Under the pieces are notes generated by a model. The model did no database searches. It saw only the letters and a list, made by a program, of their open reading frames with translations, and was not told where the DNA came from. Made by a program: the position numbers and the translations under genes. This document shows, piece by piece, positions 26,996 through 46,915 of a stretch of DNA of 64,000 nucleotides (its first letter is position 1; the number at the start of each line of letters is the position of its first letter). The stretch comes from a virus. Lineage: Duplodnaviria > Caudoviricetes. The stretch covers positions 869 to 64,868 of the IMG/VR virus record IMGVR_UViG_3300047550_002841. One strand, given 5' to 3'.

Positions 26996-27006
26996 TTTCT
27001 TAAAAA

Positions 27007-28368: not shown

Positions 28369-28380
28369 TTTCTTTTTTTA

Positions 28381-29361: not shown

Positions 29362-29367
29362 ATAGTG

Positions 29368-29375
29368 CAAAATTA
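29368..29375 (-). promoter_or_regulatory. TAnnTTTG promoter element for the scaffold/capsid genes
   Basis: TAATTTTG 6 nt before the ATG at 29361. Confidence 0.6.
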
Positions 29376-29423
29376 ATTAAATTTCCTAGAAAGCAAAGTG
29401 TTTAATAAAATATACATTTTTTA

Positions 29424-31655
29424 TTATTCTGGTACAGTAGCTTGTTCAGTTGGTTGTGCTTCTGCTGCCATTTCTTCAGATGGGGCAGCAGGTGCCTCTT
29501 CTACGGTAGGTTCTTCGTTTGCTTGAGCTGGCATGTTCTTCGCCATGTTACCAGCAACTTGCAACTCAGCTCTATAGTTGTTACCGTCTTGAGCCATTTG
29601 TGCTTGTTCCTTCTGCATGGCCATTTGTGCTTCCATCTGAGCAGCTTGCATCATCTGAGCTCTTTGTGCTTCTAGCTTACGCTCACGATCTTTTTTGTCC
29701 ATGGCATATTCAAGTTCTTTTAACAACTCAGTGTAGGTTTTTGCAGTTTCGATACGGATATAATCACGCATATCAATCATTTGATTCTGCATGGCCGCCT
29801 GTGCAATAGCCAATAGACGCTCACGAGCTGCTTCGTCAACGAAATCTTTGATCTTAATGTATACGCCAAAATCTTCAAACTGAAACTCTTCGGTCAATTC
29901 CAAGTATTCAATGCCTCGGTTATCAACCAAGCCAATGGTATCTGTTTCCAAATCCATTAACGAAATCTTGTATTGATTCAAAGAGTACTGTAGATCCTTT
30001 TCCAAAAATTGAATGAAGCCTTGATATAGGTAAGCGGTTCCCAAGTTAGATTGAGCAATTGTACCTGCCTGTGTCTTAGCCCCCAAGTAGCCAGCCTGTT
30101 GACCCATTGCGACCTTTGGTACGTTGACGATTTCTTCCATGATACGCTCTTCCTCACGTTTCAAAGCAATGATTTGTTGTACGTTAGGATCCAATGTCAT
30201 ATCAACAACTTCTACAACTTTATTGTAATCTGCGTTGTTGAAGTCTTCACCTGTCATGTTGCCATCGGTGATGTGAATCCCCATTCTTTGGAAATCGTTT
30301 AACACATCCTGTGCTGTAGCAGATCCCAATTTATGTTTATTTAAAATGAAGACTTTGCCTTTAGCACGGTCTGTCATTTTGGTAATCTCATGGTTAAGGT
30401 AATCGATTCGATCTTGGTGTTTATGCAAACGAGATGCGATAGATCGAGTTTCACCCATCACCATATTTGGCAAAAAGATTTGAATTGGCAACTGAACATC
30501 AGTAGGATCATCTGTTCTACGAACAATGTTATTTGCTTCTCCGTAATCAACTACATATTTATTGGCAATCAAGGTTCCTTTGTAGATTGTCTTTATAAAG
30601 TATTTTGAATTGGTACGTGTTCTCATTTTGGCAAAGTGTTCGTTGCCATATTGATCTTTCACTTGTTCGTATCTCAATTCTTTGTAGCCAACCCAATAAC
30701 CCGTAACGCATGCCATCTTTGGGACACCGCTATAGTTATACCACCAACGCAATTTGTTTGAGGTTATGTATTCCTCTCCCAACATTTTATCCATGGTCTG
30801 GGTATTTACTGTTTTGATTTCGTCAATCTCTTGGGGTGTCAGATGCTGAATAAATTCAGGCTTAGCAAGAATTTCACCGGGAGTAAGCCAATCAATCTTA
30901 CCGCAGTAGTGTGCTCTATTATTAAAGTCATCATCTACTGAGTTATCCCAGATCAAGTTATAAGGTAGAATGATTTCTTTAAACTGCCGTCCGTTCTTAA
31001 TTGAGTTCTCGATACCACAAACGCCACCCAACAATAGATACAAGAATGCTTGTTTGTATTTTTCAATAAACTTGTTTCTATGTAGAATATCTTCAGCAAG
31101 TCTTTGAGCGACAACTTCAGAATACTCCTTGTAGTCGTACATCATGAACTTCCGAAGATCCTCAGGCATTTCAAACTCATCCATGCCAGTAGGAGTAAAC
31201 TCAACTCCCTTCTGTGACATGATATCAAAAATCTCTTGGTACTTGATCTTCAGCATTCCAAGAGCCAGTATTTCATTCTTTTTAGAGACTAGGGCTTCAG
31301 ATGTAGCACGAACAGATGGTTCAATGTTTTCAATCATCTTAATCGCATTGCCAATCATAAAGTCAATCATTGAGGTCAACTTCTGTCCATTAATCCATAC
31401 ACTAGGCAGATCGCAGTTGTCTTCGTCTTTAGTCTTGTAGTAATAGTCTCGGTTTTCTTGTTTGCCAAGGTAGTAAGTGAACATGCGGAGCATTTCATCT
31501 ACAGGCTTTTCAAAAGTTGCTGTGCTTTGATACCCCAACATATTCTGCTGCGTATTGTATTTTTCTGCAACATACCGCAGCGAATCCATATACCACTTTA
31601 CATCTTTCTGTATCTCTGGTATAAACTGATTGGGTTGATCTCTTAAAGCAATCAT
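29424..31655 (-). CDS. Portal protein
   Basis: 743 aa; Q/M/A-rich C-terminal barrel helix and acidic tail; first gene of the head operon. Confidence 0.85.
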   Translation of the reverse strand: MIALRDQPNQFIPEIQKDVKWYMDSLRYVAEKYNTQQNMLGYQSTATFEKPVDEMLRMFTYYLGKQENRDYYYKTKDEDNCDLPSVWINGQKLTSMIDFMIGNAIKMIENIEPSVRATSEALVSKKNEILALGMLKIKYQEIFDIMSQKGVEFTPTGMDEFEMPEDLRKFMMYDYKEYSEVVAQRLAEDILHRNKFIEKYKQAFLYLLLGGVCGIENSIKNGRQFKEIILPYNLIWDNSVDDDFNNRAHYCGKIDWLTPGEILAKPEFIQHLTPQEIDEIKTVNTQTMDKMLGEEYITSNKLRWWYNYSGVPKMACVTGYWVGYKELRYEQVKDQYGNEHFAKMRTRTNSKYFIKTIYKGTLIANKYVVDYGEANNIVRRTDDPTDVQLPIQIFLPNMVMGETRSIASRLHKHQDRIDYLNHEITKMTDRAKGKVFILNKHKLGSATAQDVLNDFQRMGIHITDGNMTGEDFNNADYNKVVEVVDMTLDPNVQQIIALKREEERIMEEIVNVPKVAMGQQAGYLGAKTQAGTIAQSNLGTAYLYQGFIQFLEKDLQYSLNQYKISLMDLETDTIGLVDNRGIEYLELTEEFQFEDFGVYIKIKDFVDEAARERLLAIAQAAMQNQMIDMRDYIRIETAKTYTELLKELEYAMDKKDRERKLEAQRAQMMQAAQMEAQMAMQKEQAQMAQDGNNYRAELQVAGNMAKNMPAQANEEPTVEEAPAAPSEEMAAEAQPTEQATVPE

Positions 31656-32500: not shown

Positions 32501-33166
32501 ATGGCACTCGGAAACAACTCGTCCTCAATTTACTTGGACTTAAGAAACGGTAAAGTTTATCGTTACAGCAAAACAAACGAACCCGGCACAACAGCAATTC
32601 AAACTGCAAAGGGCGAAACACGGTACTTCTACATCTACGATTTTGTAGAGGGGCATGTCACAAACTTCTCAACTCGACAGGAGGACATTCAAGGAAAACT
32701 TAAACTGAAGTTTCAGATCCATTTGAAAGATGGCAATGATGACTACATAGTTAAGATGGATGTAGACTCATCTTACTTCAGAATGTTCTGCAGCGTAATC
32801 CCCAACATTGATTGGAATTTCCCTGTAAGATTAATACCACGGATCAAGGAAGAGCAAGGCGTAAAGAAGTCCTCTTTAATTACAGTAAACAATGGTAAGC
32901 CATGTAAGTTTGCTTTCACCAGAGAGAATCCTAACGGCAAGCCGGAAGTAACCTTTACTAAAAACAAAAAGGGTGAAGTAATTGACATTGATCGTGAGGA
33001 GGAGCAACAGTTCTTCTTCAACTTGATTGCAGATGCCAAAACCAAATTGGTACATCCAGCTGTGGCACAACCTGCTCCTACAAGTGACCGTGTTGCAACA
33101 AACGTAAAGCCTGCTCAAAACTTTTCAGAGGATGAAGCCTTTGAAGATGATGACTTACCATTTTAA
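32501..33166 (+). CDS. Single-stranded DNA-binding-like protein
   Basis: Likely start MALGNN at 32501; beta-rich body, flexible linker and acidic C-terminus EDDDLPF. Confidence 0.65.
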   Translation: MALGNNSSSIYLDLRNGKVYRYSKTNEPGTTAIQTAKGETRYFYIYDFVEGHVTNFSTRQEDIQGKLKLKFQIHLKDGNDDYIVKMDVDSSYFRMFCSVIPNIDWNFPVRLIPRIKEEQGVKKSSLITVNNGKPCKFAFTRENPNGKPEVTFTKNKKGEVIDIDREEEQQFFFNLIADAKTKLVHPAVAQPAPTSDRVATNVKPAQNFSEDEAFEDDDLPF

Positions 33167-33175
33167 TATTATTGA

Positions 33176-33514
33176 ATGAAAAGCTCATCAAAGATTGCTA
33201 ACCCCATGTTAGCAGAAGCCATCAGCAATACCATTGTCAAACCATCTAAACGCCCTCGTATTAAAAAGGATGAGGCTGCTCCTGAAAATGAAGTAGCCTC
33301 CCTCCCCGGGGGAGAAGCTCTACAGAAAGTAGAGAAGAAGGTTTTTGATCATATACAACATCATTACGACAAGGATGCTAAGATCCAGAAGCAATCGTGC
33401 ATGAAAGCCGCAGCTTCCGTTTATAATCCACCTTTTGGCGAGGAACCAGAAATCATAGCCAACAAGGTAATTCAAATCGCAGAAAAACTATACCAATGGG
33501 TGAACTCAAACTAA
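33176..33514 (+). CDS. Hypothetical protein (recombination module)
   Basis: 112-aa ORF with C-terminal KQSCMKAA...AEKLYQWV. Confidence 0.5.
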   Translation: MKSSSKIANPMLAEAISNTIVKPSKRPRIKKDEAAPENEVASLPGGEALQKVEKKVFDHIQHHYDKDAKIQKQSCMKAAASVYNPPFGEEPEIIANKVIQIAEKLYQWVNSN

Positions 33515-34497
33515 TCAACATCGACAAAGAAACCAACTATGACGAATGGCTAGCATTTCGTCAAAATGGTCTCGGGGCTTCAGACATAGGCACACTTATG
33601 GGTCTGAACCCCTACAAATCTAAAATTGAACTATTCTACCAAAAGGTAGGAGTCATACCCATCAAACAAGATGAAAACATTCCCATGTTCTATGGCAATC
33701 GTCTAGAAGACTTTGTAGCCAATATGTGGGAGTATTTCGATGGAGAAGATCCCGAATCTGTAATCACCAACTACAACGCAGGAAATAAACTAAAACACTG
33801 CAAACCAGTAACAGGTTACATCGTCAATAGCGACTATCCCAATTTGTTCCTTTCTCCAGACCGCATCATCGTAAACAAAGAAACTGATAAACTAGTTTAC
33901 GGTGGTCGCCTAATTGAAAAAAATTTCAAGGGCGTTCTAGAAGTTAAAACCATTAACGGTTTCGCATCCAAACAATGGGACGGTGGTATACCCCCATCCT
34001 ACGTTACTCAACTCCAAACCTACCTCTTCGGTCTGAATCTTACCTACGGTGAAATTGTTCTCTTTGAAGATGGTCGTAAACTCTCCTCCATCCACATGGA
34101 TCTTAACCCTACACTCAAACAACAAATCCTTGAAGCAATGGAAGACTTCTGGGAACGTGTAGATGCCGCTAAAGCTGATCCCGAAAACATTCAACTCTAT
34201 GAACCTGAACCCGATGGTACAGAAGCATTTGAAAAGTTCCTCAACGACAAATACGCAAACTCAGAAATTAAAACCCTACAAGGTACTCCCGAACTTCTAC
34301 AAATAGCTGTCACCCACAAAGTAATCGCAGCCGAAATAAAAGAACTAGAAGCCAAAAGTCGTGAATGCTCTAACCTCCTTAAAAATACCCTCAAAGAACA
34401 TGAAGCACTAGACTTCGGTCAAAGCGGTAAAGTAATATGGCGTACAGACTCTAGAGGCATTAGATCACTCCGTAATAACATTATTATCAATGAATAA
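33496..34497 (+). CDS. YqaJ/lambda-exonuclease-like 5'-3' exonuclease
   Basis: EWLAFRQNGLGASD, GNRLE, SPDR, LEVKT, YVTQLQTY motifs. Confidence 0.9.
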   Translation: MGELKLINIDKETNYDEWLAFRQNGLGASDIGTLMGLNPYKSKIELFYQKVGVIPIKQDENIPMFYGNRLEDFVANMWEYFDGEDPESVITNYNAGNKLKHCKPVTGYIVNSDYPNLFLSPDRIIVNKETDKLVYGGRLIEKNFKGVLEVKTINGFASKQWDGGIPPSYVTQLQTYLFGLNLTYGEIVLFEDGRKLSSIHMDLNPTLKQQILEAMEDFWERVDAAKADPENIQLYEPEPDGTEAFEKFLNDKYANSEIKTLQGTPELLQIAVTHKVIAAEIKELEAKSRECSNLLKNTLKEHEALDFGQSGKVIWRTDSRGIRSLRNNIIINE

Positions 34498-34714
34498 CAA
34501 AAATGTTCCCCCTGTAGTCCGTAGAATACTATCCAATAGAGACGAAATACTCTACCACCTGTCTCGTGAAAATCGTACAATAGAACAAGAATATAACCTC
34601 GTCCTTAACAAACAATCTAAACTGCCTAAACGTCTACGTGACTTTATTATCCAATACTACGAAGTTCAATCAACTCAACTGCCAAATGAAACTGACTCCC
34701 CTATCCCCCAGTGA
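34490..34714 (+). CDS. Hypothetical protein
   Basis: 74-aa ORF overlapping both neighbours. Confidence 0.5.
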   Translation: MNNKNVPPVVRRILSNRDEILYHLSRENRTIEQEYNLVLNKQSKLPKRLRDFIIQYYEVQSTQLPNETDSPIPQ

Positions 34715-35237
34715 AAAATCCTTCCTAGATCAAATTAGATCCTACTTCCAAGACTCTATCGGTGAAATACCTTGGGAAAAAGACTACATAATCCTACGCC
34801 TTACCCAAAAATCATCCAAAGACTTCTCCGATATCATCTACATCCCCACCCTACAGCCTGACCCAAACGAATACTACTACCAGACATTTAAATGTAACTC
34901 CTTTAAACACGACCAAACCAAAATTATTACAGGCTCTTTCACCTACCGCCTAGCATCTAGGTTCAACTGCGTCTACGCACAACAAATATGCCCGGTGTTC
35001 TACGAAAATACACTCTCCCACTCTATCCTCTCTGATCACTATCAACCCAAACTGAACGGTCTAAACATCCTATTTCACCCAATACACTCCATTCTGCCCA
35101 TTATGAGCCCCATTTCAGCATCCTCCAAAGGCTCAATCATCGTAGAACCCAAAGCTTACCCCACTATCAAAGAACACTACCGCAAAGGACAAACAGAAAT
35201 TAAACTCTTCGTTGTCGATATGCACCTTTTACTCTGA
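34686..35237 (+). CDS. Degenerate YkuD-like lysin paralog (catalytic Cys replaced by Ser)
   Basis: Likely start MKLTPL; colinear motif similarity to 846-1433 (see findings). Confidence 0.45.
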   Translation: MKLTPLSPSEKSFLDQIRSYFQDSIGEIPWEKDYIILRLTQKSSKDFSDIIYIPTLQPDPNEYYYQTFKCNSFKHDQTKIITGSFTYRLASRFNCVYAQQICPVFYENTLSHSILSDHYQPKLNGLNILFHPIHSILPIMSPISASSKGSIIVEPKAYPTIKEHYRKGQTEIKLFVVDMHLLL

Positions 35238-35324
35238 TTTTGCGTTTTGTCTAACTTTTGAAAGTCTCAACCCGGGAAATCGGCAGACAAAAGTTAAACA
35301 AAACACCATTTTACCCCCAAATAC

Positions 35325-35358
35325 AAGGCCCAGTACTACCCTATACCGGGCCTTTTTT
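35325..35358 (+). terminator. Rho-independent terminator ending the recombination operon
   Basis: AAGGCCC...GGGCCTT stem followed by a T-run. Confidence 0.65.
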
Positions 35359-35701
35359 ATATCCCCCCCCCACCCTAAATCAAAAAATACAAGTTTGTGT
35401 GAGCGGTGGAGGTTATACGTAAAAAAAATCAGAGCAATACGCCAAAAAAAACATCCCCTCCCTTTCGTGCCTACGCCCATACGCAAAACAGCGTGTTTGT
35501 CTTGCGGATGGTTTCGGTCGCGAATTAAAAATCAAACTGACCTTTGGTCAACCTAGGTTTTAAAATGCGTAACCAACATTTGTTGGTGTCGGACTGAGGC
35601 AATTTCAGTGGCTTTAAAGGGTTTCAACCTTAAGGTTGGCTTGCCTTAAATAAAAAGTTTGTGTCTCTCTTCAAATCAAACCCTTGGTTTGCCTCAGAAA
35701 A

Positions 35702-35728
35702 AGTGTCCAATTTTGAGTGTCCAATTTT
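35702..35728 (+). repeat. Tandem direct repeat AGTGTCCAATTTT x2
   Basis: Copies at 35702-35714 and 35716-35728. Confidence 0.9.
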
Positions 35729-36040
35729 CTATACGAAGTATAGGTTTATATATTTAACAGAGTTTCAAACTCTTAAGAGTTTGGTAGGACCTTAAAGAGA
35801 TAGTTGAAGAGCCTCGTGCCGGGGTGTGCAAGCGTGACTTTGGCGTGTAGAACTGTGGATCAAAGTGACGAGGCTGGATGTATGCTTGAGGATGTATGTT
35901 TGGATGCTTGATGGTGTGTGTATGACGCAAGATTAAACGAAGTTTAGATGAATTGTGGACAACTAATTTTATCCTTTAGGATAAGAGGTGTGGATAAGGT
36001 GGTTTGGTGAACTGAGGGAGGGAAGCCCTAATTACTTTGG

Positions 36041-36106
36041 GTTTTTATAGAGTTATTTACTCACCCTTTTTAGGGTGAGGTAAGTAAATAACTCTTATAT
36101 AAAAAC
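36041..36106. repeat. 66-bp imperfect inverted repeat (hairpin 1)
   Basis: GTTTTTATA-GAGTTATTTAC-TCACCCT-TTTT-AGGGTGA-ggtaa-GTAAATAACTC-...TATAAAAAC. Confidence 0.85.
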
Positions 36107-36119
36107 ACAAAGTAAAATT

Positions 36120-37058
36120 ATGAAAACTGCAAAAAACACCAAGACAATGCAAAGCATCACTGCCAACATCACTGAGTCAATGAAACAGAGTTTCGTTGAA
36201 AGTAGCAAGACAATGAGTAAGGATGAAATCCTTAGCCATTTGAGTTCATTCGCTAACCGTAAGGTTAAGAAAGCGTGGTTAACAAAGCGGATTAACGACA
36301 GAGTCGTTTACCTTACATTCTTAAAGCAAGCATCAACCGAAGGTTGGAAGCACTTTTATGGTCAGCCTATTCATCAGAAGTTTGTAGAACTTCAGATGTC
36401 TACTCTTCAATCTATGATTGATGTTCGTTTAAAACTTTCTCCTGAAGGAGAACGAGAGGCACTGTATGAGACTTATGTAAGTCCTTTAACTAAAGTTCAA
36501 CCAAAGGTTGTTCAGAAGCCCCAAGCCAAAGTTCAACCGAAGGTTGTCAAGGAAGTTCCTCAGCCAAAGGTTGCCAAGGTAGTCAAGATTACCAAGCCAC
36601 AACCGAAGGTTGTTGAGCAAGACGAAATGACAAGAGTCATTGATCTTCTTTCAGAAGTGACCAAGCAAGTTACAACTTGTCTCAACAAGTTGGTTGAACA
36701 CAGCAATGCAATTGCTGAATTGCAAAAGGTTGTCAACCAACCGAAGGTTGTAGAGAAGCCTAAGGCAGTTAAACAACCAAAGGTTGTAGCCAAGGGACCG
36801 AAGTTGACTGAGTTGCTTAGCAAAGACAAGCCAACCAAACAACCAAAGGTTGCCAAGGCTGAGCCAACAACTCCTAAAGGAGTCAAGGCTAAGAAACAAC
36901 CAAAGGTTGGTCCTGCAGTAAGCCTCATGACGGCTTTTTGGAATGCTGCTCAGCCAAAGCAAGACAAGAAATCTAAGATTTCTCACGAAGATGCTTTCCA
37001 ACATCGTTCCGATGTAGAAAAAGGTCAGTACAAGAAGTTTCGCATGGAGGTTTTTTAA
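36120..37058 (+). CDS. Basic early protein with QPKV repeats
   Basis: 312 aa, Lys-rich; QPKV repeats encoded by the palindrome CAACCRAAGGTTG. Confidence 0.7.
   Translation: MKTAKNTKTMQSITANITESMKQSFVESSKTMSKDEILSHLSSFANRKVKKAWLTKRINDRVVYLTFLKQASTEGWKHFYGQPIHQKFVELQMSTLQSMIDVRLKLSPEGEREALYETYVSPLTKVQPKVVQKPQAKVQPKVVKEVPQPKVAKVVKITKPQPKVVEQDEMTRVIDLLSEVTKQVTTCLNKLVEHSNAIAELQKVVNQPKVVEKPKAVKQPKVVAKGPKLTELLSKDKPTKQPKVAKAEPTTPKGVKAKKQPKVGPAVSLMTAFWNAAQPKQDKKSKISHEDAFQHRSDVEKGQYKKFRMEVF
36334..36909. repeat. Dispersed 13-bp palindromic repeats CAACC-RAA-GGTTG
   Basis: Copies at 36334, 36498, 36534, 36600, 36738, 36774, 36840 and 36897; variant at 36561; another copy at 37677. Confidence 0.9.
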
Positions 37059-37070
37059 CCTCCATGTTTT
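37043..37070 (+). terminator. Rho-independent terminator
   Basis: CATGGAGGTT-TTTT-AACCTCCATG-TTTT. Confidence 0.7.
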
Positions 37071-37108
37071 ACAAAAGTTTCACCAATTAACCATTCAAAG
37101 AAAAAATC

Positions 37109-37207
37109 ATGCAGTTATTAAAAGAAATCACCATCGGAATCGCTTTGCTTTCCCTAATTGCCTACGGCATCTATTGGATGCTTGACATCAAAAATCTTAA
37201 AAACTAA
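37109..37207 (+). CDS. Small membrane protein (32 aa)
   Basis: MQLLKEITIGIALLSLIAYGIYWMLDIKNLKN; A-rich leader; below the ORF-track cutoff. Confidence 0.55.
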   Translation: MQLLKEITIGIALLSLIAYGIYWMLDIKNLKN

Positions 37208-37211
37208 ATCT

Positions 37212-37379
37212 ATGAAAAAAGACTCACAAACCATCGTCCTCCTTCTATTTGCATTGGCTTTCTACACAAACGCAGTTTGGTCTGCCTTTTCTAATGACTT
37301 GCCTGCTCTCGTAATCAGTGGCATTATGTGCCTACTATTCGCTGGGATTGCAACCTTTTCAGTTCTCAAAAATAATTAA
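37212..37379 (+). CDS. Small two-TM membrane protein
   Basis: Likely start MKKDSQ; two hydrophobic helices. Confidence 0.6.
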   Translation: MKKDSQTIVLLLFALAFYTNAVWSAFSNDLPALVISGIMCLLFAGIATFSVLKNN

Positions 37380-37388
37380 TCTACGATT

Positions 37389-37880
37389 ATGGAAAACAAT
37401 ATGCTAAACAACTTTCAACAAATTGACAAAGTCAAACTCTACAATGTAGAAACTTACATTCATGGTGATCAACTAGAAGTTGAAACCTTTGTCAAAGAAT
37501 TGAACACTCTTGCCAAACAAACAAAGTTTGAATACGAACTGACCGAAGCAGTCCCATCGTTAGATGGCGAGGAAATTGACCCTAATCAATCTGTCTATCT
37601 TGTGTATGGTATAGTCACAGAAAAAGATATCAAAGACTTGAACTTGCATTTGGACTTTCTCATCAGCGACTACCAACAACCAAAGGTTGAATTCATTCCT
37701 ATTGCTGAAGACTTTTGTCTTATGATTGACGGCAAATCCGATGGCTATGTTTATCATTATACAACTATAGTTGATATGATAAATGACGGCTTTACTTGGA
37801 AATCTAATGAAAAGTTCAAGAGGATGACTCGCATGAATCACGATGAGTTGCAACACTTCCTCAACAACCGAAAATACTAA
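37389..37880 (+). CDS. Hypothetical early protein
   Basis: 163-aa acidic ORF in the gene run. Confidence 0.6.
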   Translation: MENNMLNNFQQIDKVKLYNVETYIHGDQLEVETFVKELNTLAKQTKFEYELTEAVPSLDGEEIDPNQSVYLVYGIVTEKDIKDLNLHLDFLISDYQQPKVEFIPIAEDFCLMIDGKSDGYVYHYTTIVDMINDGFTWKSNEKFKRMTRMNHDELQHFLNNRKY

Positions 37881-37888
37881 TGTTCTTT

Positions 37889-37953
37889 ACTCTCTCTTCT
37901 TTTGTATATACCCTGAGTTCTTACGAAGGGTTATACAAAAGATTAGAGAGAGT
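37889..37953. repeat. 65-bp imperfect inverted repeat (hairpin 2)
   Basis: ACTCTCTCT-TCTTTTGTATA-t-ACCCT-[GAGTTCTTACGA]-AGGGT-TATACAAAAGA-tt-AGAGAGAGT. Confidence 0.85.
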
Positions 37954-38013
37954 TAATAAGGCTCTGAGACCCCAACCAAAACCACAAACCAAACCACACA
38001 TCAAAGAAAAATC

Positions 38014-38220
38014 ATGTCTACCAACTTCGTTTACCTCGTATTTCAAGTAATGCCATTTGACGACTATCGCCATGAATTTGAAGGTGCTTTCAGCACTAAA
38101 GAATTGGCTGAAAACTACAAGCAATATCTTATTGCTTTAGAGACAGAAAAAGACTCTCAAACCGACCCTAATGACTTTTATGTAACTCAAGTTACACTTG
38201 ACAGAACCAAATCACACTAA
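38014..38220 (+). CDS. Hypothetical early protein
   Basis: 68 aa; VYLV...GAFSTKELAE motif common in small phage proteins. Confidence 0.6.
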   Translation: MSTNFVYLVFQVMPFDDYRHEFEGAFSTKELAENYKQYLIALETEKDSQTDPNDFYVTQVTLDRTKSH

Positions 38221-38232
38221 TCACAGAAAAAT

Positions 38233-38544
38233 ATGAAAAAGAAAACATCATCATCAATCCTCATCAACGGAATCAAAGATTTACATCCAATGTACCAAGG
38301 TTATCTTATAGATAGACTGAAACACGACATTGAACACATCAAAGATGCATTGCCCGATCTCTATGAACAAGATAAAATAGACACTGCCAATGGCAAAATC
38401 AGTATGTTTCACCCCAATTTCTATGTTACTTATGTAAATCAAATCACCGACATCATTGATGCAATTGATAGGAACTATCATGACAATTGGAAATCTGACG
38501 AAGTATTTATACCAACCCCAAAAGTGCCTTACTTTGAAAATTAA
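38233..38544 (+). CDS. Hypothetical early protein
   Basis: 103-aa ORF between junction repeats. Confidence 0.6.
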   Translation: MKKKTSSSILINGIKDLHPMYQGYLIDRLKHDIEHIKDALPDLYEQDKIDTANGKISMFHPNFYVTYVNQITDIIDAIDRNYHDNWKSDEVFIPTPKVPYFEN

Positions 38545-38558
38545 TCACAGAAAAACCT

Positions 38559-38801
38559 ATGTACATCTTTATTGAAACCAAGTTTACACTTGAAATTAGA
38601 CCATGTTACCATTGTACCTCGATTTATCGGGGTACAATTACCAAACTCTACGCCATTACTCTCAAAGATCAGAGATCAAAGAAAGAATTGACTCATCGGC
38701 TTGTTCACGAAGATGAAATCTTAACCACAATTGAAGACATTCTACCACTTTACTCACAGCAAATTGCAAACCAAATCAAAGCAGAATTTAATCTAATCTA
38801 A
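38559..38801 (+). CDS. Hypothetical early protein
   Basis: 80-aa ORF after a junction repeat. Confidence 0.55.
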   Translation: MYIFIETKFTLEIRPCYHCTSIYRGTITKLYAITLKDQRSKKELTHRLVHEDEILTTIEDILPLYSQQIANQIKAEFNLI

Positions 38802-38803
38802 TC

Positions 38804-39367
38804 ATGAAACTACAAACCATTACCTCTGGTAACATCACCGTTGAACTCTATCTTGACGATAGTCCCGAAAATCCAAGAATGAACGACAATGAAACTAAGT
38901 TCGTTATGTTCCATAAACTTTACAAACTACCAAACGAAACAGGTATCCCAAATTACTCTGAGTTCTTTAACTCATGGCAAGAAATGCAACTTGACTTGCA
39001 GTCAAAATTCAAGTATGTAACTTCGGTTTACATGCTAAGTCATGGCTCTATTCACTTTTCTTTGACTGACTTCAATGATAGATGGGATTCGGGACAAGTT
39101 GGTTTTATCGTATCTAATAATGGAACATTAGACCAATTCAAAATGCATGCTCAAATTGAACTCATGGAATATGGCTATTATGCTAATGGAGATTGCTTCG
39201 GCTACACAGTCAATCACTCAGAGATAGAAGATACAGAGTCAGGATGGAACTTCCTTGGTGGTGACCATCACGAAAGTGGATTGGTAGATTGTTTAAGCGA
39301 TACTTTAGAGTATAGTTTTAATCAGAGCCCCGAGACTATTAACGAAATCATCAAACAATTAAACTAA
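38804..39367 (+). CDS. Hypothetical early protein
   Basis: 187 aa; HGSI...RWDSGQVGF motif. Confidence 0.65.
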   Translation: MKLQTITSGNITVELYLDDSPENPRMNDNETKFVMFHKLYKLPNETGIPNYSEFFNSWQEMQLDLQSKFKYVTSVYMLSHGSIHFSLTDFNDRWDSGQVGFIVSNNGTLDQFKMHAQIELMEYGYYANGDCFGYTVNHSEIEDTESGWNFLGGDHHESGLVDCLSDTLEYSFNQSPETINEIIKQLN

Positions 39368-39394
39368 TCAAAGAAAAACTAAATCACAGAAATT

Positions 39395-39754
39395 ATGGGA
39401 CGCTATTATTCAGGAGACATCGAAGGCAAATTTTGGTTTGCTTTACAATCATCAGATTGTGCCGACAGATTCGGCAGAACTGGGCTAACGCCAAATTACA
39501 TTGAGTACTATTTTGAAGCAGAAGACTTAGCCGAAGTTGAAGCAGAAATCCAAAGGATTGAAACTACACTTGGAGAGTTCAAAGAAAAAATAGATAAATT
39601 CTTTGAGGTCAACAATGGTTGGAACGACCAAATGCTTGCCGATAACGGCATTTCAAGATACCTTTTGTCTGAGTACGCTGATCTGTACCTTGGCTACAAG
39701 ATACGAGATGCAATCAAGGAAAACGGAAGTTGCCAATTTACGGCTGAATGGTAA
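39395..39754 (+). CDS. Hypothetical early protein
   Basis: 119 aa; N-terminus MGRYYSGDIEGKFWF. Confidence 0.65.
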   Translation: MGRYYSGDIEGKFWFALQSSDCADRFGRTGLTPNYIEYYFEAEDLAEVEAEIQRIETTLGEFKEKIDKFFEVNNGWNDQMLADNGISRYLLSEYADLYLGYKIRDAIKENGSCQFTAEW

Positions 39755-39769
39755 CAAAAACCACTTAAA

Positions 39770-39833
39770 TTACCTTATCCCTCTCATATAACTCTGAGTT
39801 TATGAAGAGTTATCTGAGAGGTAGATAAGGTAA
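39770..39833. repeat. 64-bp imperfect inverted repeat (hairpin 3)
   Basis: TTACCTTATC-CCTCTCA-t-ATAACTCT-[GAGTTTATGA]-AGAGTTAT-c-TGAGAGG-ta-GATAAGGTAA. Confidence 0.85.
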
Positions 39834-39865
39834 ACTAAATTAATCCAATCAACAAAGAAAACACC

Positions 39866-40609
39866 ATGAAAACACAAATCGAATTCACAGTACCTGCACA
39901 TCTTTTGTCTGATGGCAAAAGTAATGCAAAAACCAAGAAAAACCATCGCCCTACCAAGATTTTATATCTTGCTCCTGCGGAACAAAATGCCCTTGGCGTT
40001 AATCTATGTCCCTTTGCATCCAAAGGATGTACTAAATCTTGCTTGTTTACTGCAGGAATGGGGGTGTATGCCAATGTCAAGCAATCACGAATGAACCGAA
40101 CTCACTACTATCTACAAGATAGGTTCAACTTTCTTAATCAAATGGCTCACGAAATCACCAATACCGCAAAGCGGTTGCAAAAACTCGATAAGCCTTTGGC
40201 TGTTCGTCTTAATGGTACTTCAGATGTCAAGTTGGTTGAGCAACTTGTTGCTTCTTATGGCAACGACATCCCATCCAATGTTATCTTCTACGACTACACA
40301 AAAATCCCGAAAAAAGCTGGCGAGTATACACTCAAAAGTGGTCACCGCTATGTTGTCACCTTTAGTTTATCGGAAGATAATTGGGAAAACTTTGAGTGGC
40401 TTGTAGGTAACAAGTTAGCAGTCGGTGCGGCAGTCTTCGCAGTCAAGAAAGATCAACCTTTGCCTGAGTTTTACAAAGGTATGCCTGTCGTTGACGGTGA
40501 CTCTCGAGATGACTTGATGCTTGATGTACCTAAAGGTACTATTTTGGGACTCAGAGCCAAAGGCAAAGCCTTAAAAGACCAATCAGGATTTGTTATACAA
40601 AACTTTTAA
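39866..40609 (+). CDS. Gp88-like protein (Cys-cluster, radical-SAM-like)
   Basis: NLCPFASKGCTKSCL, VRLNGTSD, FYDYTK, DGDSRD and GLRAKG motifs. Confidence 0.7.
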   Translation: MKTQIEFTVPAHLLSDGKSNAKTKKNHRPTKILYLAPAEQNALGVNLCPFASKGCTKSCLFTAGMGVYANVKQSRMNRTHYYLQDRFNFLNQMAHEITNTAKRLQKLDKPLAVRLNGTSDVKLVEQLVASYGNDIPSNVIFYDYTKIPKKAGEYTLKSGHRYVVTFSLSEDNWENFEWLVGNKLAVGAAVFAVKKDQPLPEFYKGMPVVDGDSRDDLMLDVPKGTILGLRAKGKALKDQSGFVIQNF

Positions 40610-40620
40610 TCACAACAACT

Positions 40621-40815
40621 ATGATACTTCAAAAAGAATTAACCGAAGAAACCCTTGACAATGCAAGAGCATGGTTTGAATCACTTGGCTACTCAGTCGA
40701 AATCTCATGTAGTACTTTGTACCTTGAACTTGACTGCTGTTCAGTTGAACTATCTCAATCAGAGATTGAATGCAGAGCAGAATTATGGATAAATCACCTC
40801 AATCGCAAAGACTAA
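40621..40815 (+). CDS. Hypothetical protein, paralog A
   Basis: WF...G...TLY...EI..RAELW pattern shared with the next gene. Confidence 0.65.
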   Translation: MILQKELTEETLDNARAWFESLGYSVEISCSTLYLELDCCSVELSQSEIECRAELWINHLNRKD

Positions 40816-40827
40816 TCACAGAAAAAC

Positions 40828-41016
40828 ATGAGCAATTTAGAAAAAGCATTCCGTTGGTTCCAAGAAAATGGTCATGAAGTGACCATGGATGACAACACTT
40901 TGTACATTGTAGTATGGAATACTACTTTGGAAGAGTCAATCGATGTACAAGTCAGCACTGCGGAAATTGACTACCGAGCAGAACTATGGCAAAGCCTACA
41001 AACCAATCAAAACTAA
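40828..41016 (+). CDS. Hypothetical protein, paralog B
   Basis: WF...G...TLY...EI..RAELW pattern shared with the previous gene. Confidence 0.65.
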   Translation: MSNLEKAFRWFQENGHEVTMDDNTLYIVVWNTTLEESIDVQVSTAEIDYRAELWQSLQTNQN

Positions 41017-41029
41017 TCACAGAAAAACT

Positions 41030-41245
41030 ATGGACATTAATCAAAAATCATCAGCAGACCACATCATCGAGCATTTAATTGCCATCGATGTAGACGGAGA
41101 AACTATGCACTACATCATTGAAAAAACAGGTTTGAGTTATCAAATGCTTCATCAACTAATCATGTTGGCAGGTGACAATGAACTCAACTATGTTCTTTCA
41201 GAACGAAACGAAATTCACGACCAAGGAAAAAACACACATTTATGA
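41030..41245 (+). CDS. Hypothetical early protein
   Basis: Likely start MDINQK directly after a junction repeat. Confidence 0.55.
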   Translation: MDINQKSSADHIIEHLIAIDVDGETMHYIIEKTGLSYQMLHQLIMLAGDNELNYVLSERNEIHDQGKNTHL

Positions 41246-41544
41246 TAACAAAAACGAAAGCACTCGAAATTATTGACTCAGGCAAGTTCTTTTCTTGCAA
41301 GTTTGTAAAACAAAACGGAGAGGTTAGAACCCTCCGTGGCAGAACTGGTGTACGAAAGTACACTGACAAAAACGGCAATTGCCAAACCATTAAAAATGTT
41401 GGCATGAAATACAAGCCAAAAGACATGGGCTATCGTGTGGTTTTGGATCTTGACAAGAGAGAATACCGCATGATAAACACCATCACAATCGTAGAATTCA
41501 ACAACCAACCAATCGGAAACTTTAACCTATCAAAATCAATCTAA
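41242..41544 (+). CDS. Sm-like/SH3 (WYL_2-like) beta-barrel protein
   Basis: FFSCKFVKQNGEVR...GV...VLDLDKREYRMIN pattern. Confidence 0.55.
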   Translation: MITKTKALEIIDSGKFFSCKFVKQNGEVRTLRGRTGVRKYTDKNGNCQTIKNVGMKYKPKDMGYRVVLDLDKREYRMINTITIVEFNNQPIGNFNLSKSI

Positions 41545-41547
41545 GAC

Positions 41548-41799
41548 ATGAAAGCACCTGCAGGACACTACCGCAAACTAATCAGCAATCCTCACATCAG
41601 AATTGCCTTTACTCACACTCCAATTTATGGCTGTATCAAAGTTAATAGTGATTCAGTCATAGAAGAACTTAAACAAAGTAACGATGAGTATGCTCAGTAT
41701 TACATCGATGGTCTTACAAGTGGTAACATGGTTACCATTGTAGAACAATCAGTTGAACACTACTATCGTAACAACGGAGAACTTTTCTTTACAACTTAA
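41548..41799 (+). CDS. Hypothetical early protein
   Basis: 83-aa ORF in a tight gene run. Confidence 0.55.
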   Translation: MKAPAGHYRKLISNPHIRIAFTHTPIYGCIKVNSDSVIEELKQSNDEYAQYYIDGLTSGNMVTIVEQSVEHYYRNNGELFFTT

Positions 41800-41802
41800 T
41801 CT

Positions 41803-42069
41803 ATGATAAAAGTATATTTTCAATCAGAGATTGGTAGCCACTCAGAGTTAGTGGCTACCTTTAAATCAGACGAAATGTATCAACACTTCATCCCAATGCT
41901 TGAGCATCTTGCCTCTAAACAACGCTGTTTTGTCACTGAGACTATGTCTGAGTTTGACATTGCAGAAGTAATCCCCAATCAATTGACGCAGGTACTAACC
42001 TCACTTGAGGAAGGTGATTTCAATGGGGCAACAATGGAACTTGAAGATTTAATCGACCGCCTAAAATAA
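41803..42069 (+). CDS. Hypothetical early protein
   Basis: 88-aa ORF in a tight gene run. Confidence 0.6.
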   Translation: MIKVYFQSEIGSHSELVATFKSDEMYQHFIPMLEHLASKQRCFVTETMSEFDIAEVIPNQLTQVLTSLEEGDFNGATMELEDLIDRLK

Positions 42070-42075
42070 ACTAAA

Positions 42076-42141
42076 TTATCTATGTCATCTTTGAGTATAC
42101 CCCATATTTATGGGGGGTATACTCAAAGAGACAATAGATAA
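42076..42141. repeat. 66-bp imperfect inverted repeat (hairpin 4)
   Basis: TTATCTAT-GTC-a-TCTTTGAGTATACCCC-loop-GGGGTATACTCAAAGA-GAC-a-ATAGATAA. Confidence 0.85.
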
Positions 42142-42155
42142 AACCAACAAAAATT

Positions 42156-42380
42156 ATGAACAAAACACAACAAATCGAACACAGAATGGCTATGATTTTG
42201 GATGACCTCCGAGTTATTAGACAACACATTTACACCGAAAACCTCGGGGAATCTTTTGAAAAGCCTACAACGGTGGCTGATGAGTGTTGGACTCACTTCA
42301 ACAACATCGAGATTGCTTGCGACTTAAACTCTGAAGAGAGTTTATCTTGGACATTGTTTGACCAATCAAAGAAAAAATAA
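42156..42380 (+). CDS. Hypothetical early protein
   Basis: 74-aa ORF. Confidence 0.55.
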   Translation: MNKTQQIEHRMAMILDDLRVIRQHIYTENLGESFEKPTTVADECWTHFNNIEIACDLNSEESLSWTLFDQSKKK

Positions 42381-42382
42381 TC

Positions 42383-42886
42383 ATGACACAATTAGATTTA
42401 CAATCACTGGACCGCCATTACTTTTGGAATGAACGACCCAAAGCAGTTCTACAAGATTTATCAAACAACTTTGATAAAGTTGAAGACATGACCTATCTCA
42501 ATGACACTTGTCCCTCATTAGTAATCAACGATTACATTCGTTTGTTTCTGCCCAATTCCATTTTTGACAATGGTGAAACAAGCACCAACAAATATGCGGT
42601 AGTCATTGACGAAACACACACCTTTGCAGGATCTAAGTTTTACACCTTTGATGAATTACATCATGCCGTTGAAAAAATCGATGAGTTATTGGCTGAAAAA
42701 CCATCACGACCACCCCTCTACGAAGTGGGTATTGACAGGGGTGAAACAGGTACCGAAACTCTGGCTAAATTCCCTACCATTTACGATGCTGATACATTTA
42801 TGTATGGCTACCAAATGGCAGATCCCAATGCAAAATTATTTATCGATACGATAACTTTTGATTATGTTTCAACTCTAAATAAATAA
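42383..42886 (+). CDS. Hypothetical early protein
   Basis: 167 aa; YLNDTCPS motif. Confidence 0.6.
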   Translation: MTQLDLQSLDRHYFWNERPKAVLQDLSNNFDKVEDMTYLNDTCPSLVINDYIRLFLPNSIFDNGETSTNKYAVVIDETHTFAGSKFYTFDELHHAVEKIDELLAEKPSRPPLYEVGIDRGETGTETLAKFPTIYDADTFMYGYQMADPNAKLFIDTITFDYVSTLNK

Positions 42887-42890
42887 CACT

Positions 42891-43097
42891 ATGAATTTAC
42901 TTCACCTATCTACTCTACTTGACGATGGTACCATCTATGAATCTGAAGCCGAAGCAAAACTTCGTTTTAAATACTTACTAAACCAAATCAGTAAGATTTA
43001 TGACGAACTTGAAGAAAGTGGTGGAAGTGAAGAGCAGTATGCTCTTGGCGATGTAATGAATATGCTTTACCATTTAAGTAACTATGAAAAAATATAA
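42891..43097 (+). CDS. Hypothetical early protein
   Basis: 68-aa acidic ORF. Confidence 0.55.
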   Translation: MNLLHLSTLLDDGTIYESEAEAKLRFKYLLNQISKIYDELEESGGSEEQYALGDVMNMLYHLSNYEKI

Positions 43098-43464
43098 GAT
43101 ATATCGAAACCTCCATCGTAACTGCTTCAGTGTACTAAAGTACAATCCTGAAAAGAAAGGCTATCGGTTGCACGAATACATTACACATGGTATCTTGCAT
43201 GATGTTGTAGCAAAAGTTTCTCAGGCTGGTCGACAAAGAGTTATCAAAGAAAAACAAAAGAATGTACATGCATATCTTCTCTGTGAAAAGTATGATAAAC
43301 TCGATCGATTTTCCTTTGACTCATTGGATTTCCATGAAATCTCTTACAACCCTTACATACATGATTCCTTTGTAGTCGGTCTCACTAAAACCTTTACATC
43401 AGCCACCAAAGTCGGATTAACTATTGATAGTTACACCGCCAAAGCATTACTCTTAGAAAAATAA
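43084..43464 (+). CDS. Conserved phage hypothetical protein
   Basis: YRNLH...GRQRVIKEKQKNVHA...SYNPY motifs. Confidence 0.65.
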   Translation: MKKYKIYRNLHRNCFSVLKYNPEKKGYRLHEYITHGILHDVVAKVSQAGRQRVIKEKQKNVHAYLLCEKYDKLDRFSFDSLDFHEISYNPYIHDSFVVGLTKTFTSATKVGLTIDSYTAKALLLEK

Positions 43465-43542
43465 ATTTTGAAATTACACAAACATCCTTTTTATTTGCAA
43501 AACCAATCACCAAACTTTACACAACTTAAACCAAAACAAATT

Positions 43543-44502: not shown

Positions 44503-44518
44503 TTATCAATTGTTGGTT

Positions 44519-44547
44519 GCCCCTCACCATTAGGTGGGGGGCTTTTT
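44519..44547 (+). terminator. Rho-independent terminator
   Basis: GCCCCTCACC-ATTA-GGTGGGGGGC-TTTTT. Confidence 0.75.
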
Positions 44548-44559
44548 AAAAACACTACT

Positions 44560-44772
44560 ATGGCTAAAAAAATAAACAAAGAAGTATCATTAGAAAAATC
44601 TTTTAAGGACATGGATGACATGGAGCGTAGAATCTTCTTGACTTATGTCTCCGAACACCTATTACATTACGACACCCATTTCAAAGAAATGGTAGATATA
44701 CTAACTAAATGGGAAACCACAAACCCTATACCATCAAGACTTGAATACACTATCCACGAAACACTCAACTAA
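44560..44772 (+). CDS. Hypothetical protein
   Basis: 70-aa ORF. Confidence 0.55.
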   Translation: MAKKINKEVSLEKSFKDMDDMERRIFLTYVSEHLLHYDTHFKEMVDILTKWETTNPIPSRLEYTIHETLN

Positions 44773-44776
44773 GATC

Positions 44777-45971: not shown

Positions 45972-45973
45972 TT

Positions 45974-46902: not shown

Positions 46903-46915
46903 TTCGGAGGTAACA

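Follow-up and report, generated by a model that had tools for sequence, protein, structure and literature searches.

A conserved array of small 5-3-5 palindromes over the leader and first rightward genes of an aquatic phage genome: candidate DNA mini-hairpins that may dictate QPKV peptide repeats

The stretch of DNA analysed here, 64,000 nucleotides (nt) that we call the window, corresponds to nearly all of the linear, 64,868-bp virus record IMGVR_UViG_3300047550_002841, which has no terminal repeat. We focus on a small palindrome, CAACC-RAA-GGTTG (R, purine; hereafter the 13-mer), most copies of which lie in an open reading frame (ORF) at 36120–37058, where they are translated as the peptide word Gln-Pro-Lys-Val (QPKV), and on the other palindromes of this region with the same geometry, a perfect 5-bp stem with a 3-nt spacer (5-3-5). 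This QPKV-array gene is preceded by a non-coding stretch of ~880 bp (35238–36119) with ~10 conserved palindromes and two or three DnaA-box-like sites. Judging by gene order, which is the only basis for the term, the genes after this stretch would be early genes, and they are so called below. The 13-mers and the features that accompany them are as follows.

36120–37058, + strand: ORF of 312 amino acids, the QPKV-array gene; 63 homologs, none functionally named
36334–36346, + strand: CAACC-GAA-GGTTG, exact copy, read S-T-E-G-W in another phase (phase 1) of the same ORF
36498–36510, + strand: CAACC-AAA-GGTTG, exact copy encoding QPKV; an environmental strain has A or G at loop base 36503
36534–36546, + strand: CAACC-GAA-GGTTG, exact copy encoding QPKV
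36558–36570, + strand: CAGCC-AAA-GGTTG, the eighth QPKV of the gene, degenerate, with one arm mismatch
36600–36612, + strand: CAACC-GAA-GGTTG, exact copy encoding QPKV; an environmental strain has G or A at loop base 36605
36738–36750, + strand: CAACC-GAA-GGTTG, exact copy encoding QPKV
36774–36786, + strand: CAACC-AAA-GGTTG, exact copy encoding QPKV
36840–36852, + strand: CAACC-AAA-GGTTG, exact copy encoding QPKV
36897–36909, + strand: CAACC-AAA-GGTTG, exact copy encoding QPKV
37043–37066, + strand: 10-bp stem CATGGAGGTT-TTTT-AACCTCCATG followed by TTTT, across the stop codon; terminator-like
37677–37689, + strand: CAACC-AAA-GGTTG, exact copy encoding QPKV in the ORF 37389–37880

Nine exact copies of CAACCRAAGGTTG were found in the 64 kb, all within 36334–37689, as against none in 100 dinucleotide shuffles, and the remainder of the 64,868-bp record adds no further copy. 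Seven of the nine encode in-frame QPKV in 36120–37058, and the loops give a CCGAAGG core in four copies and a CCAAAGG core in five. Looser versions of the motif are also in excess: AACCNNNGGTT occurs 11 times (0.72 expected), with 10 of the 11 copies within 35679–37688, and ACCNNNGGT occurs 22 times (6.9 expected, shuffle maximum 14). Spacings between the 13-mers, all divisible by 3, range from 18 to 147 bp (18, 21, 27, 30, 36, 39, 57 and 66 among them) and show no helical phasing; those of 36 and 66 bp each occur twice (36498/36534/36600 and 36738/36774/36840). The site matching 36334 is present in all 11 loci compared, in a distant subfamily as CAACC-AAA-GGTTG, read T-T-K-G-W (protein alignment), and the DNA word of 37677 is retained at the homologous QPKV(E/D)F of relatives (L001 at 5451 and L003 at 2959). 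A sequence-only reading of this DNA had pointed to the clustering of the palindromes in the first early gene, to the copies in another frame at 36334 and in a later gene at 37677, to upstream palindromes at 35538, 35625 and 35677, and to the recurrence of the 36- and 66-bp spacings, and each of these observations was recovered here. Its statement that nearly all QPKV words are perfect palindromes holds for seven of the eight in the gene, the word at 36558 having one mismatch in an arm (CAG).

The protein encoded by the QPKV-array gene starts with a helical domain at its N terminus; two disordered QPKV arrays follow, array 1 before and array 2 after a long central helix, and the C-terminal part is short. 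The same architecture (helical domain, array, long helix, array, short C-terminal part) was found in all 63 homologs. The AlphaFold model has a mean predicted local distance difference test score (pLDDT) of 59; confidence is confined to the first helical domain and the central helix, pLDDT values are below 50 at residues 125–146, 150–158, 160–163 and 207–263, and both arrays fall in segments predicted to be disordered. The protein yielded no Pfam or PHROG match and no Foldseek match in the PDB at E ≤ 0.001; among cultured phages, neither tblastn nor blastn identified a relative of it, and none was identified for the portal protein of this phage either. The gene contains ~25 small hairpins, 19–70 nt (mostly 27–43 nt) apart. 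The hairpin across its stop codon (37043–37066) is likely to be its intrinsic terminator; it is absent from the sites listed by a terminator-consensus scan, and environmental contigs break there.

Codon usage in this genome (CAA 0.65–0.77, CCR 0.41–0.49, AAG 0.34–0.37, GTT 0.33–0.37) predicts that QPKV followed by a G would be coded in this way in only a few percent of cases, and the two QPKV words of the late genes 27007–28368 and 28381–29370 are coded non-palindromically. The palindromic coding of QPKV therefore goes beyond codon usage. We assembled a DNA set of 17 non-redundant homologous genes, with identities down to ~30%, containing 145 x-P-K-V/A-y words. The lysine is encoded by AAG in 142 of the 145 words, the valine by GTT in 126 of 126 and the glutamine by CAA in 100 of 103; the proline codons are CCA (92), CCG (49) and CCT (4), with no CCC, and the wobble base of the fifth codon is free to vary. 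The arms of the words covary: for positions 3 and 11 the contingency table (124,3 / 1,16) gives a Fisher p value of 2e-17, or 5e-5 when only the 41 distinct 15-mers are counted, these words not being phylogenetically independent. Similarly, position 13 is a G in 100 of the 103 words with a C at position 1 and a T in 18 of the 37 with an A there. Compensatory words include KPKVS (AAACC-AAA-GGTTT), KPKAS (AAGCC-AAA-GGCTT), QPKAV (CAGCC-AAA-GGCTG) and EPKVL (GAACC-AAA-GGTTC). The residue following QPKV may be V, A, E, D or G, the only common feature of which is a codon beginning with G. The QPKV-gene homolog of one relative carries 12 or 13 13-mers; in a relative at 58% identity the motif was also found in non-coding DNA and in two further genes, AACCN3GGTT occurring 18 times (0.13 expected). 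The copies cluster within 3 kb in the related genomes G001 (18 of 20) and G002 (11 of 15).

The 13-mers are only a minority among the palindromes of this region, with stems such as GAAAC-AGA-GTTTC, AGGAT-GAA-ATCCT, ACGAC-AGA-GTCGT, CAATC-TAT-GATTG and TAAAC-GAA-GTTTA. The zone in which they lie and the main elements of the non-coding leader are listed below; "paired" and "helix" refer to an alignment of the leader and the region encoding the N-terminal domain from seven sequences.

35486–46000: hairpin-dense zone, ~6 perfect 5-3-5 palindromes per kb, with an abrupt start in non-coding DNA (~35.5 kb) and a rightward decay
35538–35550: TGACC-TTT-GGTCA, non-coding; purine-N-A (R-N-A) loop on the − strand
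35572–35587: ACCAAC-ATTT-GTTGGT, 100% paired; compensatory C-G to A-T change in two of seven sequences
35625–35638: CAACC-TTAA-GGTTG, helix 3
35677–35691: CAAACC-CTT-GGTTTG, helix 4
35729–35743: CTATAC-GAA-GTATAG, strong stem covariation, with four of five pairs changed on both sides
35766–35783: CAAACTC-TTAA-GAGTTTG, 7-bp stem; Watson-Crick in 49 of 49 cells, at least two pair types in five of the seven pairs
35934–35946: TAAAC-GAA-GTTTA, helix 7
35954–35997, − strand: DnaA-box-like TTGTCCACA at 35954 and perfect TTATCCACA at 35989
36060–36079: CTCACCCT-TTTT-AGGGTGAG, 8-bp core within a longer, imperfectly paired hairpin that lies 41 nt before the ATG

The scan for perfect 5-3-5 palindromes detected 73 in 34000–46000, compared with 16.6 in dinucleotide shuffles. 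Over larger blocks, with means of mononucleotide shuffles for comparison, there were 99 (26.6) in 32450–54280, 27 (11) in 54264–64000 and 39 (38) in 1–32000. Counted per 2 kb, this phage (G000), with a baseline of 2–3, has 23 and 18 palindromes at ~35.1–39.1 kb, two in the preceding bin and 6 to 11 farther to the right, and the bin holding the QPKV gene reaches 23, 38 and 31 in G000, G001 and G002, respectively, up from ~1–6, with a decay over ~10 kb. The excess within genes was maintained when only synonymous codons were shuffled: the early genes contain 54 palindromes, versus 13.3 (standard deviation 3.9) in the shuffled sequences, or 37 versus 10.1 when the QPKV gene is left out, and the replication block 20 versus 10.8, and there was no excess in the upstream and late genes. 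Each of the 11 loci has 32–52 palindromes (44–52 per 6–7 kb; 32–46 per 3.7–4.7 kb), as against 3.9–7.8 in shuffled sequences, many of them at conserved positions. For comparison with other phages, the density is 1.28 per kb in T7, with at most 5 per 2 kb, and 1.77 per kb in N4, with at most 10 per 2 kb. For 5-bp palindromes in the early/middle region of N4 (1–12000), the numbers were 30 versus 14.3 for a 3-nt spacer, 42 versus 13.8 for a 5-nt spacer and 17 versus 14.2 for an 8-nt spacer, a mild excess.

The seven-sequence alignment comprises 18 helices with 111 pairs, and these are 88.9% paired, a value favoured by the derivation of the structure from the same seven sequences. Twenty-one pairs are changed on both sides, compared with 9.7 in shuffles (none of 500 reached 21) and 1–7 in slid controls; only six pairs show a one-sided change. 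The palindrome at 35538 is kept in the seven aligned relatives and is 100% paired, with one pair changed on both sides (TAACC-TTC-GGTTA), and the position of 35625 is occupied in relatives by AAACC-TTC-GGTTT, AAATC-GAA-GATTT, GAATC-GTA-GATTC or GAATC-GGA-GATTC. At 36060–36079 the sequence of the relatives also differs and the pairing is kept. There is selection in this zone for perfect base-pairing in stems of differing sequence.

The DnaA-box-like sites at 35954 and 35989 flank another palindrome, TTATCC-TTTA-GGATAA (35969–35984); in the seven-sequence alignment (A2), TGTGGATAA is found at the first box in five of seven sequences and at the second in four of seven. Altogether, 35854–35997 contains one perfect and two one-mismatch DnaA boxes, ~130–270 nt upstream of the first gene; DnaA boxes in the whole window (17, versus 21.2 expected) are not above chance. 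Together with the DnaA-C-domain protein encoded farther to the right, this cluster is a possible origin, or an element resembling the iss region of T5, and an origin- or entry-related role may be considered for this neighbourhood. An inverted repeat of ~59 nt at 35245–35303, TTTTGTCTAACTTTT ... AAAAGTTAAACAAAA, lies directly after the stop codon of the ORF 34638–35237 and is kept in relatives; environmental contigs break or double in depth there, probably as an assembly effect of the palindrome. Longer hairpins (7- to 8-bp stems; loops GGA, GAAG, GTA and AAA) were seen at 40868–40925, 42325–42344, 43030–43046 and 44676–44692. They precede the starts of several early genes by 18–57 nt, distances resembling those between N4 promoters and their genes, but carry the purine loop on the sense strand. 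A scan for the sigma-70 consensus gave seven promoters versus 5.9 in shuffles, with no excess, and a search of 33000–47000 against Rfam (E ≤ 1) returned only chance-level rows.

A scan of viral sequences for two 13-mers within 35 nt identified 12 stretches. Three of the contigs concerned, G004, G007 and G006, share 0, 0 and 2 ORFs, respectively, with this phage (blastp, 1e-5), and each has one sharp palindrome-rich zone where a gene block begins, with 30 palindromes per 2 kb in G004, 15 and 16 in G007, and 10 and 13 in G006. CCGAAGG is the commonest core in all three, and their QPKV runs lie in linkers of quite different proteins, with QPKV, KPKAS and QPKAE words palindromically coded. The geometry and its regional distribution thus recur in unrelated phages. 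For control, we scanned for tandem QPKV-type words with the codon of the first Q fixed as CAA and with the codons of the first K and V and of the second Q, K and V free, and analysed 80 of the more than 115 stretches found. These repeats mostly have GTA, GTC, GTG or AAA codons. Only three of the 80 loci, those of G004, G001 and G002, have at least four words with every word palindromic, and they contain 24–34 palindromes per 1.2–1.6 kb, compared with 0–9 elsewhere; in two other loci both of two words are palindromic, and three are partly palindromic.

A corresponding scan of genome contigs for pairs of 13-mers, with 80 of 101 stretches analysed, gave mostly actinobacterial sequences or tandem arrays, with no fixed frame and unrelated to the phage. 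In dozens of actinobacterial genomes (Streptomyces, Micromonospora, Kitasatospora and others) two 13-mers lie 44–45 bp apart, probably representing an unrelated conserved paired palindrome or operator. A few contigs of metagenome-assembled genomes from Saprospiraceae, Bacteroidota and Ignavibacteria were also among the matches.

DNA nearly identical to that of this phage was found in 20 runs from 13 studies, chiefly of metagenomes from freshwater and other aquatic settings. Across four environmental DNA runs, 35200–37087 is nearly invariant: run X3 has one difference in 1888 nt here, versus 19 in 2039 nt (~1%) at 37163–39200, and the differences listed for run X5 all lie at or beyond 37802. 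This near-invariance points to strong constraint, or to a recent sweep or recombination. Run X9 gave 10 variants in this region, a small sample; they fall in loops (35683, 36503 and 36605), in outermost stem pairs (36452, 36626 and 36692) or outside the hairpins, and none falls in an inner stem.

Several properties of the palindromes bear on whether DNA or RNA would be the folding molecule. When one mismatch was allowed in the stem, 34000–46000 contained 37 palindromes with a G·T (27.7 expected) and 42 with an A·C (39.9 expected), the excess being confined to perfect Watson-Crick stems, and among 790 cells of the alignment there were 11 with G·T and 16 with A·C. In the rich zones of G000, G001 and G002, the loop is R-N-A on the sense strand in 52–57% of the hairpins and on the opposite strand in 22–27%; over six zones, with G004, G006 and G007 added, the values are 26–60% and 15–27%, where 13–19% and 12–15%, respectively, are expected. 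The loop is closed by a C-G pair in 43–74% of rich-zone hairpins versus 7–15% in late regions. In the minus-strand gene block at 54264–64000, the commonest loop flips to TTC (5, versus 2 for GAA). The hairpin at 36534 folds as expected, with −3.2 kcal/mol as DNA and −3.8 kcal/mol as RNA (96% of the RNA ensemble), and the RNA fold of the QPKV gene is more stable than that of shuffles in both the sense (z = −4.8) and the antisense (z = −7.5) orientation; the nearest-neighbour model is not known to carry special terms for mini-hairpin loops. The design with a C-G closing pair, an R-N-A loop and a CC-GAA-GG core matches that of the unusually stable DNA mini-hairpin. The stable class is described as having GC-GC or CC-GG stems with GAA or GAAA loops and as occurring at replication and transcription start sites, and CCGAAGG is given as the mini-hairpin of RSF1010 ssiA, in the available part of a review (PMC13037366). 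According to the accessible text of that review and of a further source (PMC13037366, PMC4496689), N4 promoters have a 5-bp stem and a 3-nt GGA or GAA loop. All things considered, we regard DNA as appreciably likelier than RNA.

We therefore favour, with a confidence only slightly better than even, a reading in which the sites form an array prone to mini-hairpin or cruciform formation, which marks the head of the early region and constrains its coding, and in which they are intrastrand DNA elements rather than sequence-specific iterons. Many different stems would have been written over the leader and about the first 10 kb of the rightward, presumably early genes. In coding DNA the hairpins would be built through the choice of synonymous codons, and in disordered linkers by reading CC-RAA-GG in its only frame with a harmless product, x-Pro-Lys-Val/Ala-x; QPKV would therefore be the translation of the hairpin, and duplication of a QPKV word would multiply hairpins. 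Intrastrand hairpins or small cruciforms would form when the first region is unwound or negatively supercoiled, through the same physics as in the early-promoter hairpins of N4 and the ssi signals of primases, and would be used by a factor or process that reads such structures early in infection. Hairpin-dependent transcription or priming, the handling of unwound DNA or of single-stranded DNA-binding protein (SSB), and evasion of host defences are candidate roles. More tentatively, at somewhat less than even confidence, we suggest that several aquatic phage lineages unrelated in their proteins have convergently overwritten the head of the early region, leader and genes, with C-(R-N-A)-G DNA mini-hairpins every ~30–40 nt, dictating QPKV, KPKAS and STEGW, for a structure-reading step.

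This interpretation bears on the remaining claims of the sequence-only reading. Its proposal of selection at the DNA level is supported by the synonymous sites fixed in relatives and by the presence of the word in another phase, in other genes and in non-coding DNA; the outcome it had named as counter-evidence, homologs that retain QPKV with synonymous codons breaking the palindrome, is at odds with the words described above, in which 142 of 145 lysines are AAG and 126 of 126 valines GTT. The peptide is plausibly a by-product, as it had supposed, since the arrays lie in segments predicted to be disordered and QPKV is mostly not palindrome-coded elsewhere. Its comparison with iteron or operator sites such as those within lambda O is not favoured, in view of compensatory arms, unphased spacing, the use of the word by protein-unrelated phages and the many palindromes of the same geometry; this larger set of palindromes of unrelated sequence, among which the 13-mers sit, had escaped it.

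Several observations weigh against an array of DNA hairpins. G004, G006 and G007 were found with a 13-mer query and are a biased sample, their hairpin density being outside that query. The energetics cannot discriminate between DNA and RNA, because both strands beat the shuffles and the energies of the 13-mer are similar. The R-N-A loops are biased about two to one towards the sense strand and the zone coincides with a co-oriented gene block, both of which would be predicted by a role in mRNA; coding constraints and A-richness could be another source of the sense bias. The classic G-N-A loop is in the minority at the QPKV sites, some two thirds of which have an AAA loop (CCA 92 versus CCG 49 in the words of the homologous genes). 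The exact CAACC-RAA-GGTTG is far more repeated than other stems and recurs in unrelated phages, such that a factor reading both sequence and shape is possible. Folding is a computational prediction and the role in infection a proposal, and the terms "early" and "first to enter" come from gene order only. A hairpin-reading polymerase was not found: the 4148-amino acid ORF described below is not detectably similar to the N4 virion RNA polymerase (vRNAP; best BLASTP E = 0.53) and gave no PHROG, Pfam or PDB-sequence match and no T7-type motif B in a regular-expression search. The PF00940 profile matched in none of five records, and this is uninformative because the search control also matched nowhere.

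The hairpins might instead act in early mRNA, by blocking Rho loading or R-loops, stabilizing the RNA against nucleases, hiding it from RNA-guided defences, or binding or sponging an RNA-binding protein. This possibility, which we consider credible but unlikely, would account for the sense-strand R-N-A loops, about twice as frequent as those of the other strand in all six rich zones, for the TTC flip in the minus-strand block, for the tracking of a co-oriented gene block by the zone and for the terminator-like hairpin at the end of the first gene; the 13-mer and the whole gene also fold well as RNA. However, G·U pairing is not favoured, as seen in the alignment cells (G·T 11, A·C 16), in the six one-sided versus 21 double changes and in the slight rise of G·T palindromes (37 versus 27.7) beside that of perfect ones (73 versus 16.6). 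Antisense R-N-A hairpins, for which there is no obvious RNA use, are enriched as well (22–27% of a 4- to 6-fold excess in the three related genomes), folding is stronger still on the antisense strand than on the sense strand, and C-G-closed R-N-A triloops are a DNA mini-hairpin design in the portion of the review at hand (PMC13037366). A dimeric DNA-binding protein recognizing the 13-mers by sequence, as iterons, operators or centromere-like sites, would be expected to leave clusters such as the nine identical dyad sites in 1.35 kb observed here or the 12 or 13 in a relative's gene, and the inner AACC-N3-GGTT is by far the most repeated stem, with 10 of its 11 genome copies clustered. The binder could be the 312-amino acid protein, a phage ribbon-helix-helix (RHH) or helix-turn-helix (HTH) protein, or a host factor; the phage encodes an RHH protein (48118–48489) and a DnaA-C-domain HTH protein (53780–54280), DnaA-box-like sites and a possibly origin-like leader adjoin the array, and the actinobacterial pairs, 44–45 bp apart and without fixed frame, look operator-like. 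We nevertheless judge this reading improbable. The compensatory arms within one gene (AAGCC/GGCTT, CAGCC/GGCTG, AAACC/GGTTT) preserve pairing and not a recognition sequence, spacings of 18, 21, 27, 30, 36, 39, 57 and 66 bp show no helical phasing, and the word is embedded among many palindromes of the same geometry and unrelated sequence. A specific binder encoded by the phage is unlikely because the word is also used by phages that have no ORF in common with this one (blastp, 1e-5).

It is still less probable that the palindromes have no function and are kept perfect by a mutational process, with intrastrand template switching or copy-back correction acting on quasi-palindromes where the DNA is often single-stranded, or that the likeness of the QPKV words stems only from recent duplication, concerted evolution and codon bias. 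Template switching predicts perfect stems, short spacers, apparent compensation and no tolerance of G·T, as observed; the 36/66 spacing common to the two arrays suggests duplication, and the QPKV gene is rich overall in AAG (38 of 52) and GTT (22 of 36). Under these explanations, however, the codons would not be expected to be retained down to ~30% protein identity while adjacent wobble sites are randomized, nor the hairpins to stand at conserved positions in the strongly conserved N-terminal domain. The excess is also limited to one zone in each of six genomes and missing from neighbouring genes, QPKV words elsewhere in the genome and in the 80 control loci are mostly non-palindromic, and 35200–37087 is nearly invariant in environmental strains (the X3 comparison above). 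Some further ideas were dropped: a restriction or modification site, since phages avoid rather than accumulate such sites; an N4-like promoter at each 13-mer, the loop being on the wrong strand and there being no start motif; and cooperative protein binding on one face of the helix, as there is no phasing.

The rest of the genome provides the setting for the array. The structural genes are on the minus strand at 1–32437, with the portal gene at 29424–31655 and an ORF of 4148 amino acids, of virion-protein size, at 2628–15074 (−). The rightward genes at 32450–54280 include a YqaJ exonuclease, many small ORFs without an assigned function, a serine recombinase, a T7-type primase-helicase, a family-A DNA polymerase and a DnaA-C-domain protein, the replication genes lying 13 kb from the QPKV-array gene. 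Two of these genes have the following positions.

49968–51668: primase-helicase
53780–54280: protein of 166 amino acids with a DnaA C-terminal HTH domain

The Arc/CopG-like RHH protein (48118–48489) is directly followed by a serine recombinase/invertase of 229 amino acids (48118–49175 together), and the pair may be a module for inversion or integration, in a genome that otherwise looks lytic. On the minus strand, 60279–61505 encodes a histidine-kinase-like protein with PAS and HATPase_c domains, which is unusual for a phage.

If the interpretation as DNA hairpins is correct, two codes are superimposed in this region, and the DNA-structure code wins over the protein code, fixing synonymous sites, choosing the amino acids of linkers and giving rise to a recognizable peptide repeat as a by-product. 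Palindrome-coded x-P-K-V/A-x words, together with more than ~5 5-3-5 palindromes per kb with C-G-closed R-N-A loops, would provide a signature for such zones in metagenomic phage contigs, and this signature may also mark the end that is early or enters first. Peptide repeats of low complexity in phage proteins should be annotated with caution, as they may not be selected as peptides. In the literature searched (supplements excluded), no description of hairpin-dense early regions was found, and a preprint on viral inverted repeats does not contain the terms "early", "spacer" or "enrich". The main well-studied case of hairpin-reading at transcription start is the N4 virion RNA polymerase, and the ssi signals are the case of hairpin-reading by primase; a dense, conserved and convergent array suggests that such steps are commoner in phage infection than is known.

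The iterons of the lambda origin are repeated dyad-symmetric sites in gene O, in the linker between two domains, and are translated. The sites described here resemble them in being near-identical and clustered inside a coding gene (eight in 36334–36909). They differ in their compensatory arms, absence of phasing, minimal spacing of 18 bp and recurrence in phages without common proteins, and in being part of a 10-kb field of unrelated palindromes, with the replication genes 13 kb away. No AT-rich block that could be the unwinding element of an iteron origin was defined, G+C content being 0.39–0.41 in 2-kb windows. The PeSL (promoter-early stem-loop) cassettes of the T4-type phages RB49 and phi1 also comprise many small stem-loops in early, hyperplastic regions (PMC2839356). 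PeSLs are intergenic promoter-plus-terminator cassettes mediating shuffling, whereas the palindromes here are mostly intragenic 13-mers without promoter motifs. The iss region of T5 is described, in the accessible portion of a preprint (bioRxiv 10.1101/866236), as a large untranslated head of the first-step-transfer DNA with many inverted repeats or palindromes and DnaA boxes, and the ~880-bp leader, with its ~10 conserved palindromes and two or three DnaA-box-like sites, is similar; T5 has eight ordered DnaA boxes, however, and palindromes running into coding genes are not reported in that portion.

The early promoters P1–P3 of N4 are alike in their 5-bp stem, 3-nt loop, C-G closing pair, purine-N-A loop (GAA or GGA) and position at the head of the early region, and their stem bases may vary if pairing is kept, according to the parts of the sources available (PMC4496689, PMC13037366). 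The scan used here recovers the N4 sites (GTTGC-TTC-GCAAC, GAAGC-TCC-GCTTC and GCTGC-TCC-GCAGC). By eye, the order of a giant ORF, capsid-size ORFs and portal (2628–15074 and 15118–31655) also resembles that of the N4 late module. Unlike the zone described here, with ~70 palindromes, most of them within coding sequence, N4 has only three hairpin sites; its R-N-A loops are on the template strand, whereas those of the QPKV sites are on the sense strand and only the leader sites at 35538 and 35677 have them on the template strand; and each N4 hairpin is followed by TT(A/T)TGG, whereas 14 sites in the window have no common downstream motif. DNA mini-hairpins of the GCGAAGC family, ssiA and G4-type origins are single elements in non-coding origins with a GAA loop, whereas here dozens of hairpins overlap genes and two thirds of the QPKV loops are AAA. 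The CC-GAA-GG core is nevertheless the literal ssiA sequence given in the review, in the part available (PMC13037366).

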